Shown here: piece by piece, positions 8,349 to 41,840 of the stretch
Layout: every line of letters begins with the position of its first letter
Numbering within the stretch: position 1 is the stretch's first letter
From: Candidatus Woesearchaeota archaeon
GTDB lineage: Archaea > Nanobdellota > Nanobdellia > Woesearchaeales > JAGVYF01
NCBI GenBank assembly: GCA_023264635.1
Contig: JAHFLT010000005.1
Coordinates: 4,582-68,581, forward strand
DNA: 64,000 nucleotides
Direction of reading: 5' to 3'
Notes under the pieces: generated by a model
What the model was told of the DNA's origin: nothing
Databases searched by the model: none
The model's input: the letters and a program-made list of their open reading frames with translations, nothing else
Program-made: the position numbers and the translations under genes

Positions 8349-8422
8349 CTTTCTCACATCCACATCCTCATCTGTTAGTTTAAAGATGAGTGTTTCATTG
8401 GTCATTGATTTATTTCCCTCTT

Positions 8423-8670
8423 AAGTTTTTCCCAGGTTTTTTTCGCTGAGCCGAAGGTGAAGTCGAAAAAAAGCAGGTGTAAGTTGCAGCGAAACTGCCT
8501 ACTCTTTTCCCAGGTTCCAAAGAAATTCTTTTGGAATTTCTTGGACCAAGACGAGCTTTGCTCGTCTTTGGTTTTGGGAGTGAGCCGAAGGCGAACGAAC
8601 AAAAAGCTGAAATGGGCCCACCCGGATTTTCTACTGGGTATTCAGTCTTTGAACCGGGGACCTTCACCTT
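8423..8670. repeat. Expanded copy (A) of a repeated intergenic element: core motifs tttttcccagg, gctgagccgaagg, aaaaagctg and tttgaaccggg, with an internal partial duplication and two strong hairpins
   Basis: The same motifs in the same order as element B at 41526..41612. Hairpins are agaaattc-tttt-gaatttct (8521-8541) and ccaagacgagc-ttt-gctcgtctttgg (8546-8571), each followed by a T-run. A long-range 9-bp pairing aaggtgaag (8453-8461) with cttcacctt (8663-8671) also encloses part of the region. It lies in a 470-bp gap between convergent genes. Confidence 0.5.
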
Positions 8671-8821
8671 TCTTCAGCATATTTGTTTTATCTCTTTGTG
8701 CTATGTAAGGGTGACGTCATAGCCGCTAGACCATGGGCCCGAAACAGAACGGTATTTTTAAGAGATATAAAAGACTTTACCTACCTAATCCAAATCTTGC
8801 ACGCCTTGCGCCTTCGACGTT

Positions 8822-9556
8822 TTATTTTCTTTGTAATATCCCAAGAGACGCTCTAAAGAAGAAACATGCGTCGATACCATATCCACAGCCGTAACGATTA
8901 CCGCGACTAACAGGCATCAAAACATTTTCCGGTGGAAGATAAAGCCATGTATTCTGCCTAATTTCCTCGGGTAATATCGCATACGGACGAGACCAGAGCT
9001 TCTGGACTAGGAAGGGGTTTATTTCGTTCACACCTTTGGGGGTACTCCAATCAAGTAATGAGCCAATGGAATACACTTCCTCTCCCGCGTGTTTCAGTTT
9101 TCCTCCTTGCACTACATATTGATATCCATTCCACACTAGATTCTCCGGGTCGAGATAGCAGTGCAACATATTCTCTTCCTGCATTATCGCCATGCTTAGC
9201 CATTCTCCGTAACCATTGAGCATATTATCAGCAATTGCTTGCTGGTCTGGTTGTAGTGTCCCTTCCAGTCCTCTGCAGATAAGGTCAAATGCTTCTACTG
9301 GTCTGGGATGGCGCTCGTAGCCGCGTGCTCGCAATGCACGCAGACTGGCGTCATAGGTGTACAGTCTTTTCTCTTTTCCATCATAAACCGCTTTCTCTTC
9401 GAAAACAACATCAGATAGTGCTGACTTTATGGTAATCTCCTTTTTCTCATCGGGTTTGCCGATATCGAGATATGATTCAATGCCCATAAAGAGGGAGAGA
9501 TTGAGTGACATTAAAAAACTTACCTGCTGAGTAAGTTGAGTAAAAGCTGAGAACAT
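8822..9556 (-). CDS. Unknown-function paralog family, copy 1 (of 3)
   Basis: Shares GKPDEKKEITIKSALSDVVFE, YERHPRP.EAFDLICRGLEG, YGEWLSMA, LHCYLDPENL, VVQGGK.KHA and KLWSRPYAILPE with 19030..19695 and 19692..20369. Likely true start is MGIESYLDIGKPDEKK. About 170 nt are near-identical to copy 2. Confidence 0.5.
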   Translation of the reverse strand: MFSAFTQLTQQVSFLMSLNLSLFMGIESYLDIGKPDEKKEITIKSALSDVVFEEKAVYDGKEKRLYTYDASLRALRARGYERHPRPVEAFDLICRGLEGTLQPDQQAIADNMLNGYGEWLSMAIMQEENMLHCYLDPENLVWNGYQYVVQGGKLKHAGEEVYSIGSLLDWSTPKGVNEINPFLVQKLWSRPYAILPEEIRQNTWLYLPPENVLMPVSRGNRYGCGYGIDACFFFRASLGILQRK

Positions 9557-9581
9557 ATCTTTATATAGTTTTTATCTCTTC

Positions 9582-10973
9582 TTGGGACTTGTGGGGGAAG
9601 TGACAATACAAGACAAACTCCTGGGAGATAATGGTGTCTACGACCTAGTGAACCAAAACTTCTACTTGAATCGTGCACAAATCCAGCTAGGAGACAGATT
9701 CTTCGAGCCAGTAGCGTTTATCGGCATTCTCACTGCTCTTGTCGACGGCAAAGAATTACTGTATGGTCCGTATGGCAAAGGGAAGACAACTTCTTCAGAA
9801 GCGTTGGGAGCACTCCTCTATGGACTCCCCTTGGAATTCATGCAGGTAAGCCAACTTGATGGTCATCCAGAGCAGACAGAAGAGAAAATAAAGGCTATCA
9901 TTGATTTAGGCAAGCTCACTAAAGAAGGGATTGAGGAGGTCATCTGGCGGTTGTTCGTGTATACTCCTGCAAAAGTATGTGATGAAATTAATCGTCTTCC
10001 CGAAGGCAAGCAGAACATCTTGCTCAAAGGAATTGATAGAAATGTATGGACGTACCGAGATAGTACATTGACAGTGCCGCAAGGATGCTTTTACGGAACA
10101 TGCAATTATGCTGACAGGGGAAATACAGATCTCATCCCACCGTTGAAAGACAGATTTGACATCGCTGTAGAAGTGAGACGAGCAGACCCTATTCGCCGCG
10201 AACTCATTAGAAATGGCGTTGTGCGAGATGCATTCGAACAGCTGAAGGAGCCAGCACTGTATACGGAAATTTTCGCTATGCTGATGGACTCCAAACACAC
10301 AGCTGAAAAAAAACTGGAGTTGCTAGAACAGATGAGTCAAAAATTCAAGCAAGAACTCAGCAAGCGCTTCAGTTTGTCCCTTCCCACGAATGATGAACTA
10401 CGCACTGCTAAAAAAGAGTTATCTTCTCTTATCTTGGAGGATGAGGCGACCCTATTCATAGATTACCTTACCAGCGAGATGGAATTCTGTATCTACCATG
10501 ACAAGCCAGAGCATGCCACCTGCCAGAAATGCCATTGGAAAGATTTTCTTTGTTCAAGAATGGGGAAAATAGGAGGCAGACTTGAGCTTTCGGTGGTTAA
10601 GTATGCCCGTGCAACAGCGTGGTTATTAGGGGAAAAAAAAGTAACATTGGAACACGTCAAGATGATATACCCTTATGCGCTATGGCACCGTGCAGAGTTT
10701 CAGGATAATATTTTACAGGAGTATGTCAGCGAGCCGAGAGAAAGCACCTTAAAGCTCCACATCGCACGAAAGATCGTGGAAGAGAAGACACCCCATTTTA
10801 TCGAGACAAAGGACCTGCAGGCACGGAGCTATAATGCTGTTGTCAATAGCAACGCAAACGACCTTGAGAAGTCTCACTTTAAGCATGCTGTGTACGTGGA
10901 TTACGTCAGTGCATGGGACTCCAAAAAAGACAAGGACGCTGTTGAGCAACTGCTGAAAAAAATAAGGAAATGA
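9582..10973 (+). CDS. MoxR-like AAA+ ATPase (AAA_3/AAA_5 type) with a Cys-containing C-terminal extension
   Basis: Walker A LLYGPYGKGKTT. Walker B and sensor region VCDEINRLPEGKQNILLKGIDRN. NP-loop/arginine region TVPQGCFYGTCNYADRGNTDLIPPLKDRFDIAVEV. Non-ATG start (TTG or GTG around 9582-9600). TATA-like ctttatatag about 25-30 nt upstream. Confidence 0.65.
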   Translation: MGLVGEVTIQDKLLGDNGVYDLVNQNFYLNRAQIQLGDRFFEPVAFIGILTALVDGKELLYGPYGKGKTTSSEALGALLYGLPLEFMQVSQLDGHPEQTEEKIKAIIDLGKLTKEGIEEVIWRLFVYTPAKVCDEINRLPEGKQNILLKGIDRNVWTYRDSTLTVPQGCFYGTCNYADRGNTDLIPPLKDRFDIAVEVRRADPIRRELIRNGVVRDAFEQLKEPALYTEIFAMLMDSKHTAEKKLELLEQMSQKFKQELSKRFSLSLPTNDELRTAKKELSSLILEDEATLFIDYLTSEMEFCIYHDKPEHATCQKCHWKDFLCSRMGKIGGRLELSVVKYARATAWLLGEKKVTLEHVKMIYPYALWHRAEFQDNILQEYVSEPRESTLKLHIARKIVEEKTPHFIETKDLQARSYNAVVNSNANDLEKSHFKHAVYVDYVSAWDSKKDKDAVEQLLKKIRK

Positions 10974-11650
10974 CGCTTGACAAACTGATAAAAAAATATG
11001 GTTTGTGGTCAAAAGAAGTTGTAGCATCAAAAGAAAAGTATGTAATAAATGAACAGGCACCTACACCCTATCACCGCTTGCTGGAGCATATCCTTTATTT
11101 TACACCCGAACAACCATTCCCCGGGGTATTCAAGCACTCTTACGATTTATTAGTAAAGGAAGGACTCGAGCCATCACAAGATGATATCGAAGCATTCGCA
11201 AAGAGTTTCCTCGTTTATGAAGGATATGACCGTTTCTGGCGCCGTGCAGGGAAATTTCTCTCAGCCATGATCGCATTATGGGAAAATAACACACACACAA
11301 AAACGTTTATTCGGCTCGATTTCTCTGCTGCAAGTAAACCTGTAGACTATGCATGCATAAAACTAAATAACTGTTCTATTCAGATAGATGGGTCTGTGGG
11401 CTCTTACTGCGGCATGAACAGCAAGGAATGCAATATCCTTATCCAAAGCAATGCTGGTCAATCTCTTGGTTACAAAGCAGAGAAAACTCTTTTCAAAGTA
11501 TCTGGAGAGACGGGAACCGGACTTGGAGCGTATGCACATGCATGCTCATATTTTGTCCGTGGCACAATAGCGCAGATTTCACCGTATATTCTATCCAGTT
11601 GCGAGGTTTACAATAGTGGTGGCAGCGCGCACACAAAGGTGTTCCCATGA
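10970..11650 (+). CDS. Small protein with an N-terminal helical region and a C-terminal GXGXG-type beta-helix repeat; paralog 1 of 3
   Basis: N-terminus MTLDKLIKKYG. C-terminal IQIDGSVGSYCGMNSKECNILIQSNAGQSLGYKAEKTLFKVSGETGTGLGAYAHACSYFVRG fits the GXGXG beta-helix pattern of the glutamate synthase C-terminal domain and FwdC. Start overlaps the upstream stop. Confidence 0.5.
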   Translation: MTLDKLIKKYGLWSKEVVASKEKYVINEQAPTPYHRLLEHILYFTPEQPFPGVFKHSYDLLVKEGLEPSQDDIEAFAKSFLVYEGYDRFWRRAGKFLSAMIALWENNTHTKTFIRLDFSAASKPVDYACIKLNNCSIQIDGSVGSYCGMNSKECNILIQSNAGQSLGYKAEKTLFKVSGETGTGLGAYAHACSYFVRGTIAQISPYILSSCEVYNSGGSAHTKVFP

Positions 11651-12219
11651 CCATAGACAAACTCCTCAAACAAAAAAAGGTCCCAGACAAAAAGGTAAGT
11701 GAACAGAAAAAGACAAATTATCAGGAATCACTTCAGCCATTGAGCCTTCATGACCTCTATAAAGATATGCTCCTTGGGTATGAATATGGCTTACGATGGG
11801 ACCCGAAAAAGCTGGACATCATCACCGTGACAAGGGATGATTTGACAGTAATCATAGACGAACTGTCATGCCACCAATCCTCTATCGGATTCGAGTTCTT
11901 CACAGGCAGCTTTATTTCAGATGTGATGATGCACTTGCTTATGAAGGGAGAACTTGAGAAATACATCACTATTACTCTTCCAAAGGCAGTTCACAGGATG
12001 GGCGCTGGAATCCATACCATAACCCTCGAAATTAAAGGAGACTGTGGCTACAATTGCGCGCAGAACGCGAAAAATGCGATGTTTATCGTCCACGGAGATG
12101 TGACAACCATTGGAAGAAATGAGAACTGTACATTTTACATTTATGGTGACGTCAAAAGTCATAAATATTATAATAGCAATGTGTATCTGTACAGAAACAA
12201 TGGATGGACTCACCTATGA
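11647..12219 (+). CDS. GXGXG-like beta-helix small protein, paralog 2
   Basis: N-terminus MTIDKLLKQKK. C-terminus ITLEIKGDCGYNCAQNAKNAMFIVHGDVTTIGRNENCTFYIYGDV. Overlapping start/stop with its neighbours. Confidence 0.5.
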   Translation: MTIDKLLKQKKVPDKKVSEQKKTNYQESLQPLSLHDLYKDMLLGYEYGLRWDPKKLDIITVTRDDLTVIIDELSCHQSSIGFEFFTGSFISDVMMHLLMKGELEKYITITLPKAVHRMGAGIHTITLEIKGDCGYNCAQNAKNAMFIVHGDVTTIGRNENCTFYIYGDVKSHKYYNSNVYLYRNNGWTHL

Positions 12220-12803
12220 CGCTTGAAAAACTTTTGAAGAAACACGGAATAAAGGTGATTGAAGTAAAGGATAAGGCAAAGCATATTGTTGCTTATCCCT
12301 CCATCGTAGAGATATACACTCTTTTAATAAAAGACGCTGCACAATTCTTCGACGGAAAAAAAAAGGTGCAATATGCTGATATATGTGAATTGCTCACAAG
12401 GAGAGGATGCACAAAAAATGAGTTTGAAAAACTATGCGCTTCACTGGATCAATACAAGAATATGCGTAATTTTCCTCGATGCACAGGTATCGCATTAAGC
12501 ACAATAGTAACAGTACTTCCAGCAAAGATGACTATTGATGTTTCTTCTTTATCTGTTCCGCCAGATTATCTCTGCACACGCCTCGCTGACAAGGAGTATA
12601 CCCTTATTGGGGAGGTAGGTAGATGTTTTGGGTTCCAGACAGAGCGCAGTATTTTCCATCTTGATGGGAGATATGGAGATTCTCTGGGCAAAGAAACTAG
12701 TGACTGCACGTTTTATATCAAAGACCCATATACTCCGCATAATATCCCCCCGTCCAATAGTGTTTACTACTTAAAGAATGGCAAGTGGCGGCGCGGGAGA
12801 TAA
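12204..12803 (+). CDS. GXGXG-like beta-helix small protein, paralog 3
   Basis: N-terminus MDSPMTLEKLLKKHG. C-terminus LIGEVGRCFGFQTERSIFHLDGRYGDSLGKETSDCTFYIKD. Confidence 0.45.
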   Translation: MDSPMTLEKLLKKHGIKVIEVKDKAKHIVAYPSIVEIYTLLIKDAAQFFDGKKKVQYADICELLTRRGCTKNEFEKLCASLDQYKNMRNFPRCTGIALSTIVTVLPAKMTIDVSSLSVPPDYLCTRLADKEYTLIGEVGRCFGFQTERSIFHLDGRYGDSLGKETSDCTFYIKDPYTPHNIPPSNSVYYLKNGKWRRGR

Positions 12804-12865
12804 AGGAAGATAATAGTAGGCATTCTTCAAACAATAGCATTTCACTTAACCGCCTGAATGGAAAT

Positions 12866-13279
12866 CTAAACATATGCATCAGCAGTTGTGTGCACTGCTC
12901 CCCCATAGCGTGGAAAATTCTCGCCGCGCATGATGAGATGCGTCTTCGGATTCTTTGATTCGAATGCTTTAATGAGATATTGCTTGGCAAATTCATAATC
13001 AAAGTGTTTGCATGAAAAGAGATCTATAAAGACGTAATCTTTTGCCTCAAAAGTATGTATTGATATGTGGCTCTCTGCAATCACGATGAAGCCAGTGATG
13101 CCTTTGTCTTCTGGCACCAATCCAGAATAACGGAACACATAAGGCTGTGTTATTTTTGTCATCCCTATCAAATCTGGCAGCTCATTCAGGAGCTGTGACA
13201 CGAAGTCCAGATCTTTTAATTTTTTTTGATTACACTGGTTTAAGTCAAGAGTTAAATGTGGTCCGAATGCTTGTTTCAT
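12866..13279 (-). CDS. speH: S-adenosylmethionine decarboxylase proenzyme (archaeal/bacterial SpeH type)
   Basis: GPHLTLDLNQC, GITGFIVIAESHISIHTFEAKDYVFIDLFSC (the ES self-cleavage serine site), about 137 aa. Confidence 0.75.
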   Translation of the reverse strand: MKQAFGPHLTLDLNQCNQKKLKDLDFVSQLLNELPDLIGMTKITQPYVFRYSGLVPEDKGITGFIVIAESHISIHTFEAKDYVFIDLFSCKHFDYEFAKQYLIKAFESKNPKTHLIMRGENFPRYGGAVHTTADAYV

Positions 13280-13489
13280 TTTTTAAATTCCTCCCTGAGT
13301 AGTTGAGTTAGTGGGTGAGACTGCTTTTGGGAGATAGTGGGTGAAAAAAGAGTAGAGAGAAAGAGTGATAGTTCTCCAACGACAAAGACAGCTATCCCAC
13401 CAGGAAATAAACCGAGAGTAAGTATGCATCATTTCTTATTGTCTACTTCTTAGTATTTACTCCTTAAGAAAATAAAGGTACTTATAAAT

Positions 13490-14515
13490 TTAACGCAATT
13501 CGCCTGGCTTAAAGATCCCATTTTCAGTGATTATTCCCGTGATGTATTTCGCAGGAGTTACGTCAAATGCAGGGTTGCTGGCATGAGAATCTGGTGAGCA
13601 GACAAGAATCCTCTCAAGCATCCCTTCTGCTGTCTTGCCTGTCTGATAAAGCACTTCATCCTCACTTCTCTCCTCAATAGGAATCTCTCTGCCTGTTGCG
13701 CATTTTTTGTCAATAGTTGACATTGGAGCAGCGATATAAAACGGGATCCCAAACTCTTTTGCGCAGATGGCCTTTTCCAGAGTTCCTATCTTGTTTGCAG
13801 TATCACCGTTTCTCGCTATCCTGTCAGCGCCTACAATAATGAGATCTATTTCTTTACGCGACATGAAATATGCAGCAGCATTATCAGTTATTATTTTGTG
13901 TTCAACACCATTGTGGTATAATTCCCACGCAGTAAGCCGTGCTCCCTGTCCGCGCGGTCGGGTCTCATCCACAAGCACAGAGATGTTTTTTCCTCGCTGC
14001 TTGGCAACATAGATTGGCGAAAGCGCAGTTCCATAATCCACACATGCTAACCATCCGGCATTACAATGTGTTTCAATCCTAAAACCAGAACCGATTAAAG
14101 AAACGCCATATTCTCCAATCTTTTTGCATGCAGCAACATCTTCATCTGCTATGCACTGGGCTTCAAGCACAGGAGACATCGATTTATAGACTCTATTTGT
14201 TGCATAGAAGAGATTATATGCCGTGGGGCGGGTGGCTTCTATATCCTGCTTTGCAAGCTCGATATCAGCTCCTTGCAAAAAAGCCTGTGCCATTGCAAAG
14301 CCTGCTGTCACACCAATTGCAGGAGCGCCTCTCACTCTCATGTCCTTTATTGCTTCACACGTCTCTTGATATGTCTTCGCTTCATGAACTCGGAAACTAA
14401 ATGGCAGCGCATTCTGGTCAATGAAAAAAACAGATTGTCCCTGCATCCAGACTGTCCTGTAATGTGTGCCGTTAACCAGCATTTTTTTCTGAGGAAGGGT
14501 AAAATATAAAAGCAT
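13490..14515 (-). CDS. mtnA: eIF-2B alpha/beta/delta family isomerase (methylthioribose-1-phosphate or ribose-1,5-bisphosphate isomerase)
   Basis: IDQNALPFSF...CEAIKDMRVRGAPAIGVTAGFAMAQ and GADRIARNGDTANKIGT. Likely start is MLVNGTHY. Confidence 0.7.
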   Translation of the reverse strand: MLLYFTLPQKKMLVNGTHYRTVWMQGQSVFFIDQNALPFSFRVHEAKTYQETCEAIKDMRVRGAPAIGVTAGFAMAQAFLQGADIELAKQDIEATRPTAYNLFYATNRVYKSMSPVLEAQCIADEDVAACKKIGEYGVSLIGSGFRIETHCNAGWLACVDYGTALSPIYVAKQRGKNISVLVDETRPRGQGARLTAWELYHNGVEHKIITDNAAAYFMSRKEIDLIIVGADRIARNGDTANKIGTLEKAICAKEFGIPFYIAAPMSTIDKKCATGREIPIEERSEDEVLYQTGKTAEGMLERILVCSPDSHASNPAFDVTPAKYITGIITENGIFKPGELR

Positions 14516-19029: not shown

Positions 19030-19695
19030 TTATGCTTGGGGCATTACCCCGCGAGAGACCTTGCAGTACCCTGTGCCGACATCATACCATTTATAGTAAC
19101 CACCGCGACTCATAAGCCACAAAACACTCTCTGGTGGAATCCACATCAATGCATTCTGCCTAATCTTTTCGGGTAGTATCGCATACGGGCGAGACCAGAG
19201 TTTCTCGACCAAAGTGGGGTTTATTTCGTTCATGGTTTTGGGGGTAAAGCAATCAGGAAATGAGCTAATTGAATACACTTCCTCTCTCGCGTGTTTTATT
19301 TTTCCTCCTTGTACAACATACCTCCACTCTTTCTTATCCCATAGGAGATTCTCCGGATCGAGATAACAATGCAACAAATTTCCTTTCCGCAACATTGCCA
19401 TGCTTAGCCATTCGCCATAACTATTCATCATATCATCAGCGATTGCTTGCTGTTCTGGAGATAATCTTCCTTCCAGTCCTCTGCAGATAAGGTCAAATGC
19501 TTCTGCTGGACGGGGGTGGCGCTCATAGCCGCGTTCTCTTAGTGCTTGTAAGCTGTCATTGAAAGTGTAGAGTTTTTTGTGTTGTCCTTCGTACACAGTT
19601 CTCGGTTCGAAAACAACATCTGATAGTGCTGACTTTAGGGTAATCTCTTTTTTCTCATCGGGTTTATTGAGGCCGAGATAGAAATCAATGCTCAT
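19030..19695 (-). CDS. Unknown-function paralog family, copy 3
   Basis: Shares the same conserved blocks as 8822..9556. About 80% nucleotide identity in the core, with a divergent C-terminal tail. Confidence 0.5.
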   Translation of the reverse strand: MSIDFYLGLNKPDEKKEITLKSALSDVVFEPRTVYEGQHKKLYTFNDSLQALRERGYERHPRPAEAFDLICRGLEGRLSPEQQAIADDMMNSYGEWLSMAMLRKGNLLHCYLDPENLLWDKKEWRYVVQGGKIKHAREEVYSISSFPDCFTPKTMNEINPTLVEKLWSRPYAILPEKIRQNALMWIPPESVLWLMSRGGYYKWYDVGTGYCKVSRGVMPQA

Positions 19696-20369
19696 CGTTG
19701 TCGTACCCCACGAGATGCACTGGTGATGTAGCTGGTGTCAACATCATACTTGGTGATGTAGTTATTGCTACTGACAGGACGCAAAGCATTTTCTGGTGGA
19801 AGCAAAATCCACGCATTCTGTCTTATCTCTTCAGGTAATAGTGCATAGTGACGAGACCAGAGCTTCTCCACTAAGGCTGGATTCGCATCGTTCATATATT
19901 TAATGTGAATCAACCCATGCAATGAGCCAATAGAGTACACTTCCTCTTCCGCGTGTTTCAGTTTTCCTCCTTGAACAATGTATTGATTTCCATTCCACAC
20001 CAGATTCTCCGGGTCAAGATAGCAATGCAACAGATTTCCTTTCCGCAGAATTGCCATGCTCAGCCATTCGCCATAACTATTCACCATATCGCCAGCAACT
20101 GCTTGCTGCTCTGGTTGCAGTCTCTCCTCCAGTCCTCTGCAGATAAAATCAAACGCTTCTACTGGTCTGGGATGGCGCTCGTAGCCGCGTGCTCGCAATG
20201 CACGCAGACTGGCGTCATAGGTGTACAGTCTTTTCTCTTTTCCATCATAAACCGCTTTCTCTTCGAAAACAACATCTGATAGTGCTGACTTTATGGTAAT
20301 CTCCTTTTTCTCATCTGGTTTGCCTAGTCCCTCGTACAGTTTTATCATGTTAATAGAGAATCCCAACAA
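19692..20369 (-). CDS. Unknown-function paralog family, copy 2 (tandem with copy 3)
   Basis: Same blocks. The 170 nt at 20151-20320 match 9291-9460 with 2 mismatches. Confidence 0.5.
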   Translation of the reverse strand: MLGFSINMIKLYEGLGKPDEKKEITIKSALSDVVFEEKAVYDGKEKRLYTYDASLRALRARGYERHPRPVEAFDFICRGLEERLQPEQQAVAGDMVNSYGEWLSMAILRKGNLLHCYLDPENLVWNGNQYIVQGGKLKHAEEEVYSIGSLHGLIHIKYMNDANPALVEKLWSRHYALLPEEIRQNAWILLPPENALRPVSSNNYITKYDVDTSYITSASRGVRQR

Positions 20370-31897: not shown

Positions 31898-31949
31898 TTT
31901 TAAAGGTATGGCGAAATCTTTATAAACACGGCACTATGTTCAGGTACTT

Positions 31950-32060
31950 GGACGGTCATAGGGGCTTGGTTCACCCGATCCCATTCCGAACTCGGACGTT
32001 AAGCAAGCCTCCGTACCGGTAAGTACTTTACTCAGTAGGGGAAAGCTGGTAAGCTGTCCA
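31950..32060 (+). rRNA. rrf: 5S ribosomal RNA
   Basis: CACCCGATCCCATTCCGAACTCGGACGTTAAGC matches the universal 5S loop B/helix III/loop C core. Terminal helix I is ggacgg...ctgtcc. TATA-like tttataaa about 25 nt upstream. No 16S/23S adjacent. Confidence 0.75.
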
Positions 32061-32174
32061 CTCACATTCTCCCTTTACTACATTCTCCCGTAAGCATATT
32101 CTTCACTCAGCTATTCTTCCACAACTTACACAAAGATTAAATAATGCTGTGCACTGCCCGAGTAACACTTACCT

Positions 32175-36774: not shown

Positions 36775-36848
36775 AAACTTTTTATACCATTTAAAGTTTT
36801 GTGCAGTTTTGTGCTTTTCTTAGAGATGATTGAGAAAAGGAGATAATT

Positions 36849-36995
36849 GGGGCTACATCCGAAAAAGCGCTCAGCAGCTTAAGGTCGAGGCTTAGCAGTA
36901 GCCCATTTTGCGCTGACAAAGGGTAACATCCGGGAAATGCAAAGAAGCCATAGGCTTCTTGCACAAGGAGAAACGCTGTTCTCCTTTGTGTCAGC
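36849..36995. ncRNA. Candidate structured non-coding RNA: nested strong stems in a 400-bp non-coding gap
   Basis: Stem ggggctac(36849)...gtagccc(36903). Stem gcgctgacaaagg(36910)...cctttgtgtcagc(36995) encloses the hairpins gcaaagaagcc-ata-ggcttcttgc and ggagaa-acgctg-ttctcc. No ORF. Strand unknown. Confidence 0.3.
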
Positions 36996-37181
36996 TATCA
37001 CTTAGAAATACAAAGGCGGGAAGTTACTGAGCCGAATGAGAGCGAGAATTTTTGGATGGAGGCGATAGTTGAGAAAGTATTAAAAATAGATGGTTATTCT
37101 GGACATATCTGAATGTAACTGGGGTGTCTGTGGCGATTCTTCACTGCAATTTGATTGTTGTTCTCATAGCCACATATTTTT

Positions 37182-41424: not shown

Positions 41425-41525
41425 TGTTAACTATAGTTAATTATTGTTTTTATATAATTCTTTCGATAGAGATTGTAACGCCGCGGCCCGGACTTTCACC
41501 AGCCGACTCTTGTGACGAAGTCACC

Positions 41526-41612
41526 TAGTTTTTCCCAGGTTTTTGGTAGCTGAGCCGAAGGACAAAGTCCTGAAGGCGAAGCGGACAAAAAGCTGTTTTG
41601 AACCGGGAGATC
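41526..41612. repeat. Compact copy (B) of the repeated intergenic element; it lies inside a ~240-nt region whose ends can pair GCCGCGG (41479) with CCGCGGC (41712)
   Basis: tttttcccaggtttttggtagctgagccgaaggacaaagtcctgaaggcgaagcggacaaaaagctgttttgaaccggga. Includes the local hairpin aggac-aaa-gtcct. Sits in a 400-bp gap. Confidence 0.5.
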
Positions 41613-41840
41613 CCTTGCGGGAAACGAGATAATCGCGAGAAGACACTCTCACTGATTGCGATGCATTCTCAAATGTCTGCAGATAGCAATCTCGCGCAGT
41701 ACCAGGTTGTGCCACCGCGGCATCTGTGAAACGATAAAGAGTTTTTATATAAATCTTTGGTGAATCTGTGAACTACATAATACAACAGCAAAGAATCAAC
41801 CCGAAAAGTATTAAATAGGCACTTGTTTTACCTTTTTCGC

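Follow-up and report, generated by a model that had tools for sequence, protein, structure and literature searches.

A hairpin repeat associated with split tRNA genes in a Woesearchaeota genome: copies behind tRNA-Val genes and inside a tRNA-Ser T-loop intron

For several archaea, among them the Thermoproteales, the Thaumarchaeota and DPANN members such as ARMAN-2, tRNA genes with non-canonical introns and bulge-helix-bulge (BHB) splice motifs have been described. For the Thermoproteales, even an "intron transposition" is known, in which similar introns are found in different tRNA genes by a mechanism described as unknown (PMC4090602; PMC4033280). Furthermore, two reports mention a C/D-box small RNA (sRNA) within a tRNA-Trp intron as well as tRNA-sRNA arrangements near split genes (PMC4731332; PMC4090602). 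Here, a stretch of 64 kb (the window) of contig JAHFLT010000005.1 was analysed, which belongs to a metagenome-assembled genome (MAG) of a Woesearchaeota archaeon of the DPANN group. The window harbors two split tRNA genes and a hairpin repeat of ~65 nt, which is present behind a tRNA-Val gene as two units (A1 and A2), inside the T-loop intron of a tRNA-Ser gene (B) and, just outside the window, behind a further tRNA-Val gene (C). On balance, this repeat appears to be a lineage-specific element tied to tRNA genes that has spread at the DNA level, probably serving as a terminator in the flanks and being carried as a passenger in the intron.

The tRNA genes themselves are ordinary members of the archaeal non-canonical BHB-intron class. 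They share with this class the introns outside of position 37/38, the hBHBh'-type junctions, the presence of two introns per gene and the fact that such genes are missed by default finders. They differ in that all three genes use the same 59/60 site and in that the body of the tRNA-Ser intron recurs extragenically 3' of tRNA-Val at two loci. The transposed introns of the Thermoproteales are similar with respect to the related sequences at different tRNA species of one genome, a presumed DNA-level spread and the dependence of a copy's persistence on a BHB motif. In contrast to these, only one copy is intronic here and three are extragenic, placed in tandem or in a flank, and the host is a Woesearchaeote. 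Transposed introns are defined as similar introns in at least two tRNA genes, whereas among the four units seen here B is the only intronic one and A1, A2 and C are located 3' of the mature tRNA end and are devoid of the central BHB helix. A BHB motif around the flank copies was rejected due to this missing helix, so that they are not spliceable as they stand. The extragenic flank copies represent the new aspect, as measured against the Thermoproteales introns in the form in which citing papers summarize them.

Both loci of the window lie on the minus strand and, judged from their predicted spliced products, are shown to be genuine archaeal tRNA genes, which contain two BHB-type introns apiece (at 37/38 and in the T-loop at 59/60) and adopt canonical cloverleafs once spliced. 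The tRNA-Val(UAC) gene (8613..8740) is composed of the exons 8740-8704, 8669-8648 and 8626-8613. Splicing by hand yields 73 nt, which ARAGORN recognizes as tRNA-Val(tac) with a perfect 7-bp acceptor stem and the discriminator base A73. When the precursor is folded without constraints, the acceptor, D, anticodon and T stems all appear (-44.1 kcal/mol, z = -3.7). The canonical intron at 37/38 (8670..8703, 34 nt) displays, as read from the letters, a relaxed BHB consisting of the anticodon stem, CUUA/GAAG (3 bp and an A·G mismatch), 3-nt bulges and AGCA/UGCU, and this helix-bulge-helix is also present in the minimum-free-energy fold of the precursor. The non-canonical T-loop intron (8627..8647, 21 nt) restores the T-loop TTCAAAT upon excision. 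Here, the BHB reads as T-stem, UUC/GAA, the bulges AAG and AAU, and ACUG/CAGU, and the intron hairpin appears in the minimum-free-energy fold as well.

The tRNA-Ser(GCU) gene (41479..41721) contains the exons 41721-41684, 41630-41597 and 41492-41479, which result in 86 nt after splicing by hand. ARAGORN identifies this product as tRNA-Ser(gct) with a long variable arm and the discriminator base G73, and the minimum-free-energy fold of the precursor recovers the acceptor stem, the variable arm and the T-stem. Removal of the 53-nt intron at 37/38 (41631..41683) leaves a canonical anticodon loop; its BHB, likewise a reading of the sequence, contains the central helix UUGC/GCGA and the 3-nt bulges UAU and UUA beside the anticodon stem. 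The T-loop intron at 59/60 (41493..41596) has a length of 104 nt and its body is repeat unit B. In the minimum-free-energy fold of the whole precursor, this site shows the T-stem (5 bp) followed by UUCA:UGAA (4 bp) with the bulges AAA and AGU on opposite strands. Together with the inner helix CAGCU:GGCUG, which contains one extra G, this is a near-textbook hBHBh' motif, and it is the terminal CAGC/GCUG stem of unit B that provides this inner helix. The motifs of the other introns are relaxed (3 bp and a mismatch, or a G·U pair), again by sequence reading.

A third split gene of the same genome is located on the minus strand of a Logan contig (L013), on which each position equals the window position plus 1647. 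This tRNA-Val(GAC) gene (L013:36-178) lies ~1.47-1.61 kb upstream of window position 1 and harbors a 70-nt T-loop intron at 59/60 and no anticodon-loop intron; ARAGORN confirms tRNA-Val(gac) after splicing. The 59/60 intron is therefore shared by each of the three known tRNA genes within ~66 kb, and the five introns of these genes have no resemblance to each other. Since the two tRNA-Val loci are also alike upstream, they are probably paralogues, which would have been duplicated together with their flanks. Archaeal promoters typically have a TATA box ~27-28 nt upstream. TATA-like boxes are found on the minus strand ~28 nt upstream of tRNA-Val(UAC) (TTTTATAT, 8765..8772) and ~27 nt upstream of tRNA-Ser(GCU) (TTTATATAAAAA, 41742..41753), and we infer that both are promoter elements of the tRNA genes.

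In the unspliced DNA, ARAGORN detects no tRNA in the whole window, and neither of the two tRNA genes is detected there by Rfam at gathering thresholds. The sole Rfam family above threshold in the 64 kb is a stand-alone 5S rRNA (31948-32062, plus strand, 70 bits) without adjacent 16S or 23S rRNA. Disrupted tRNA genes have been reported in DPANN lineages (PMC5829648; PMC8450103). Since none of the three T-loop-split genes is detected by ARAGORN and Rfam, the tRNA complements of such DPANN MAGs will be under-called unless intron-aware tools are applied.

The repeat is real, which follows from the motif counts, the alignment score in comparison to shuffles and the identity of the cores. The motif CCTTCGGCTCA occurs exactly three times on the minus strand within the 64 kb (8457→8447, 8591→8581 and 41561→41551), and its match count at up to one mismatch was reached by none of 100 shuffles. 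The motif AACCTGGGAAAA is also present exactly three times (8438→8427, 8516→8505 and 41541→41530) and follows the same order and strand as CCTTCGGCTCA. When the A flank and the B intron were aligned by Smith-Waterman, the score was 53, in comparison to a mean of 14.8 (sd 2.2, maximum 27) for 1000 shuffles. After removal of the copy-specific insertions, the three cores align over 52-53 nt with 71-75 % identity. The motif CAGCTTTTTGT on its own is not significant, with 7 matches, a count that was attained by 3 of 100 shuffles. The original prediction, a note made from the letters of this stretch, had quoted its motifs at the right places, and the repeated hairpin-forming element that it proposed is genuine.

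On the minus strand, the unit of ~65 nt reads CAGC-U(5-7)-…GCC-UUC-GGCUCAG…-A(5-7)-CCUGGGAAAA…AAGAGU-GGC…GCUG and folds as an imperfect hairpin, at the base of which the U-run is paired with the A-run. This pairing is possible in all three cores, with 92.9 % of the cells paired in comparison to 23-67 % for partners that were slid along the sequence. All copy-specific insertions are located at the tips of hairpins or between helices.

Unit A1 (CAGC…GCTG, 8609→8487, minus strand) begins 3 nt (TTT) past the discriminator base of tRNA-Val(UAC), and a T5 run within the unit follows immediately on the 3' end of the tRNA. It was recovered by nhmmer with E = 5.8e-9 and carries a nested insertion of 56 nt (8570→8515), which is absent from A2 and B in the core alignment. 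This insertion contains the two perfect 9-bp hairpins that had been noticed before (8520-8542 and 8548-8568), each of which is unique within the window. In a scan for bacterial-type terminators, only the second of these hairpins passes, and a single site compares to 0.9 expected by chance. Unit A2 follows A1 in tandem (8476→~8415, minus strand) and is a T7/A7 imperfect palindrome with the inverted repeat 8432-8445 / 8464-8477. The expanded copy A of the original prediction thus consists of two tandem units; its internal duplication and the inserted two-hairpin block stand, the single copy does not. Furthermore, the right-hand ~57 nt of the interval that had been reported as repeat (8613-8669) belong to tRNA-Val, namely to its second and third exons and its T-loop intron. 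The element is located on the opposite (minus) strand to the one in which it had been described, within a tRNA context that had not been recognised.

Unit B (41595→41500, minus strand) contains an insertion of 15 nt, AGGACTTTGTCCTTC (41557..41571, minus strand), which in the core alignment is absent from A1 and A2 and is bordered on both sides by the direct repeat CCTTC. It extends the conserved apical hairpin by an AGGAC/GUCCU helix at the tip, in line with the aggac-aaa-gtcct hairpin previously noted for B. A second small insertion in B forms the hairpin GUGAC-UUC-GUCAC. The B intron and A1 fold better than shuffled sequences (z = -2.4 and -4.2, respectively). The stems of A2 are degraded, with z = -1.3 and an A·C within the GCC/GGC stem. 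A reading of GGCTCAGC…CCTGGGA as a tRNA D-arm was rejected, as a matching 3' strand of the D-stem is missing.

To count copies, a covariance model (R1) was built from the three cores and run without filters. Over the window, R1 finds only A2 (74.9 bits, E = 1.9e-14 at 8476→8424), B (59.2 bits, E = 5.1e-11 at 41595→41528) and A1 (44 bits, E = 8.7e-8, for its 5' part), and the next best match has E ≈ 0.9. R1 was also run on ~82 kb of fetched loci. In the ~72 kb of these that stem from relatives no significant copy is present, and the sole significant matches are those in L013, at both of its ends. The match at the far end is A2, cut by the contig end, and the match at the start is the fourth copy, C, located 1.6 kb outside the window directly behind tRNA-Val(GAC) and likewise cut by the contig end. 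The context of copy C, …GGACCCA-TTT-CAGCTTTTTTTCGACTTCACCTTCGGCTCAGC, has a junction identical to that of A1 (CCCATTTCAGCTTTTT), so that CCCA-TTT-CAGCTTTTT is the shared junction of tRNA-Val and element. Moreover, 30 nt (GCTTTTTTTCGACTTCACCTTCGGCTCAGC) are identical between A2 and copy C. Overall, each of the three known tRNA genes within ~66 kb carries the element, compared with none of ~64 protein-gene 3' ends, and all four copies are oriented in sense and directly border a tRNA processing site.

Short-read (Logan) contigs of this organism and of a relative break in or beside the element or the tRNA genes, namely at positions 1 and 10100 of L013, at the end of L008 (2092) and at the start of L002. 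These breaks fit a repeat whose copies share k-mers of at least 30 nt, and such loci are therefore likely lost or fragmented in MAGs.

Under the reading as a tRNA-linked repeat, the consequences of a copy would depend on its place. In tRNA-Ser, unit B would be a passenger that is spliced out and discarded. Here, both 3-nt bulges would be cleaved by the splicing endonuclease, with the cuts placed behind A59 and ahead of U60, and ligation of the exons would restore the T-loop UUCAAAU, with …GGUUCAAA joined to UCCGGG…. In the flanks, the archaeal RNA polymerase would be halted both by the T5-T7 run of the tRNA strand and by the mirror T-run of the opposite strand, and the flank copies would act as a bidirectional terminator between the convergent genes for tRNA-Val and the ZIP transporter. 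The copies may have spread among tRNA loci by gene duplication together with the flanks, by tandem duplication and by one transfer between flank and intron in either direction, and may later have gained small hairpin insertions at loop positions.

Termination in archaea needs a T-run alone. The element resembles the archaeal oligo-T terminators by its runs of T5-T7 right after the tRNA-Val 3' ends and by the mirror T-runs facing the convergent ZIP gene. It differs from them in that the run is embedded in a conserved unit of ~65 nt and in that one copy is intronic, where termination would be counter-productive. T5 begins 7 nt after the 3' end of tRNA-Val(UAC) and T7 begins 7 nt after that of tRNA-Val(GAC). 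For tRNA-Ser, whose copy is internal, the 55 nt downstream of the gene contain no T-run of at least 4. Within coding regions, runs of T5 or longer are depleted on the sense strand (1.6 per kb in comparison to 2.9 per kb overall). This suggests that the flank element probably acts as an oligo-T terminator hairpin. The conserved terminator or untranslated-region module of the original prediction survives as a partial description; a T-run shortly past the end of the gene is a property of the flank copies alone.

Several points weigh against this reading. Only one compensatory pair (G-C to U-A) supports the hairpin; 138 of 500 shuffles do equally well, and with only three sequences the comparison has no statistical power. 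Two of the three loci are paralogous tRNA-Val genes with similar flanks, and the four copies therefore correspond to about two independent placements, one in the Val flank and one in the Ser intron. Runs of T5 or longer are only weakly enriched after genes (19/64 in comparison to a background of 19 %), and oligo-T termination is general knowledge for archaea, which is assumed for this host. Further, a terminator role is inapplicable to B, where a sense-strand T5 in the intron of a presumably essential tRNA is expected to be mildly harmful. As intronic B also has the T5 run, terminator function is unlikely to be the reason for the conservation of the sequence.

The surroundings of both loci were compared with those of relatives. 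Homologues of LonB with 70-85 % identity carry the names Candidatus Woesearchaeota or Nanoarchaeota, in line with a Woesearchaeote as the host. In relatives with a Lon protein of 82-85 % identity, Rpp14-proteasome genes are found upstream of Lon and tRNA-Ser is absent there. In two related MAGs with a ZIP protein of 63-66 % identity, the convergent IF-2B gene follows directly after ZIP, the two genes being adjacent and overlapping. In the window, IF-2B is confirmed at 13493-14515 and 5.1 kb (8349-13489) lie between ZIP and IF-2B. Because both genes are directly adjacent in the related MAGs, this stretch is, by comparison of gene order, an indel relative to these two genomes. It contains the element, tRNA-Val and six open reading frames (ORFs), including a 244-aa ORF of a protein family described below, an AAA_5 ATPase, three tandem paralogous ORFs and an AdoMet decarboxylase. 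No att-type direct repeats bounding the stretch were found, and a Pfam scan of its ORFs revealed no integrase or transposase. The contig with the most similar ZIP of a relative (74 %, L008) stops 120 nt behind this gene and shows a weak resemblance to the 3' part of the element (AACCTTGGAAAAAA, 15 bits, E = 0.28), which is suggestive only.

Beyond these loci, the pattern CCTTCGGCTCA-N(4-34)-AACCTGGGAAAA gave one match in the GTDB representative genomes and two in JGI metagenomes, all of which are chance matches in high-GC bacteria. A looser pattern gave no match in IMG/VR, and blastn against phages and plasmids found nothing.

One rival explanation, which we consider improbable, is a functional small RNA released from the tRNA transcripts, by RNase Z in the Val flank and by the splicing endonuclease, with or without circularisation, in the Ser intron. 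The sense orientation of all four copies at tRNA processing sites would fit to such an RNA, as would the conserved core with indels confined to loop positions, the hairpin that is compatible with every copy and the single compensatory change, and the favorable folding of B and A1. In its arrangement, a structured module in sense orientation inside a tRNA intron or beside a tRNA, it resembles the RNA modules known to be carried by tRNA genes. It differs from them since it has neither C/D (RUGAUGA/CUGA) nor H/ACA boxes on the tRNA strand, no recognised kink-turn signature and no match to Rfam. For B, neither CUGA nor UGAUGA is present on the tRNA strand; the opposite strand contains GUGACGA and a CUGA 31 nt off, which is the wrong spacing. 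Even at E ≤ 10, Rfam (with SRP RNA, RNase P RNA and others) returns only noise of ≤21 bits and no family claims either locus. In addition, the degraded stems of A2 speak against a functional RNA, transcription of a flank copy should already end at the T5-T7 run at its very start, ahead of the synthesis of the unit, and no conserved homologue was found in the loci of relatives or in the public collections scanned. With no Rfam match and a lone compensatory pair without statistical weight, there is no evidence for the free-standing structured RNA family that had been among the candidates of the original prediction.

The same low probability is given to a non-autonomous element resembling a miniature inverted-repeat transposable element (MITE), or to the stub of an integrative element, which would target tRNA genes and survive where its insertion is harmless, in an intron or past the 3' end. 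Like prokaryotic palindromic repeats and MITEs, the unit is a short imperfect palindrome in several copies, with mirrored ends (CAGSTTTTT…AAAAASCTG), a tandem arrangement and nested insertions, and it breaks short-read assemblies (within the element at both ends of L013 and at the end of L008). The 30 identical nt in A2 and C imply recent copying, both window loci coincide with gene-order differences to relatives (the stretch between ZIP and IF-2B, and the tRNA-Ser that is absent upstream of Lon), and tRNA genes are known integration targets (PMC4033280). However, target-site duplications and extended or defined terminal inverted repeats are lacking, the mirrored features being confined to the CAGC…GCTG ends and the U/A-run arms; no flanks are duplicated at the four junctions, no dispersed copies are seen away from tRNA genes in 64 kb, and all known sites are tRNA genes. 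Furthermore, no att-type repeat surrounds the 5.1-kb stretch, no integrase or transposase is encoded in it according to Pfam, and no similarity to phage or plasmid records or to IMG/VR was found. A MITE-like repeat, as proposed before, survives as a partial description. Finally, A- and T-runs inflate short matches and CAGCTTTTTGT alone is not significant, which could point to mere coincidence of low-complexity intergenic sequences. This idea is refuted by the shuffle tests (a score of nearly twice the shuffle maximum), by two exact motifs of 11-12 nt, each with three occurrences that agree in order and strand, by the covariance matches and by a fourth copy with an identical tRNA junction, and its probability is close to nil.

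Other parts of the original prediction have to be revised in the light of the tRNA genes. Copy A had been proposed to be a version of B with an intron-like insertion; the relation is reversed, as it is B that resides in a real intron, with A being extragenic. One of the presumed motifs of the element, ttttgaaccggg, belongs to two tRNA genes, where it represents the T-arm (CCCGGTTCAAA). For A, a pairing of aaggtgaag with cttcacctt about 200 nt away had been suggested. The 9-nt complement (8454-8462 / 8662-8670) does exist, and yet cttcacctt corresponds to positions 38-46 of tRNA-Val, with the 3' strand of the anticodon stem, which is why the pairing is incidental. Moreover, copy C behind tRNA-Val(GAC) keeps CTTCACCTT, yet this tRNA has no complement to it. 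A supposed further occurrence of a motif at 37027 has one mismatch to the 11-mer and no flanking similarity (nhmmer E = 2.8), and R1 has no match covering it at E ≤ 10 on the minus strand, in which all copies are oriented. It was rejected as a copy of the element and ascribed to chance. The motif lies in an intergenic region of ~400 nt (36775-37181), which contains several local hairpins (e.g., gaagccataggcttc and caaaggagaa…ttctcctttg).

Some observations were made on the neighboring genes. The 244-aa ORF beside tRNA-Val belongs to a protein family of ~220 aa without a Pfam match, of which three copies are present on the minus strand of the window (8825-9556, 19033-19695 and 19695-20348). About 35 distinct members with 53-73 % identity were found, several per contig, on contigs apparently of the same MAG. 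On the plus strand, three successive ORFs (10970-12803; 226, 190 and 199 aa) with near-identical starts (ATGACGCTTGACAAACT…) form a tandem paralogue array without a Pfam family. In the related MAG GCA_016211195.1, a GC-rich intergenic region of ~240 nt between Rpp14 and Lon (L005:9700-9940) is closed by a long helix (GGCTTCATCCAAAAA…TTTTTTGGATGAAGCC) and matches no Rfam family at E ≤ 1. This region may represent a structured RNA that has gone unrecognised, and the presence of GAGCCGAA within it is probably a coincidence. A relocation of a "130-aa + ferredoxin" gene pair in comparison to the same contig was rejected, as the proteins are not homologous.

For the origin of the tRNA-Ser intron, the tRNA-linked repeat opens a tentative scenario. 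A hairpin repeat that is normally present behind tRNA genes might have been captured by tRNA-Ser, between its T-loop and its 3' exon, or might have escaped from there, with its own CAGC/GCUG stem supplying the inner BHB helix. If the element were merely a local terminator hairpin, duplicated together with tRNA-Val, it would be a curiosity. The mechanism by which archaeal tRNA introns spread is still called unknown (PMC4090602). If true, such a capture or escape would document, directly in sequence, the origin and the DNA-level movement of non-canonical introns in archaeal tRNA genes. An intron body in one gene, which is at the same time the 3'-flank unit at two others, represents a concrete and testable case for the origin and spread of these introns.

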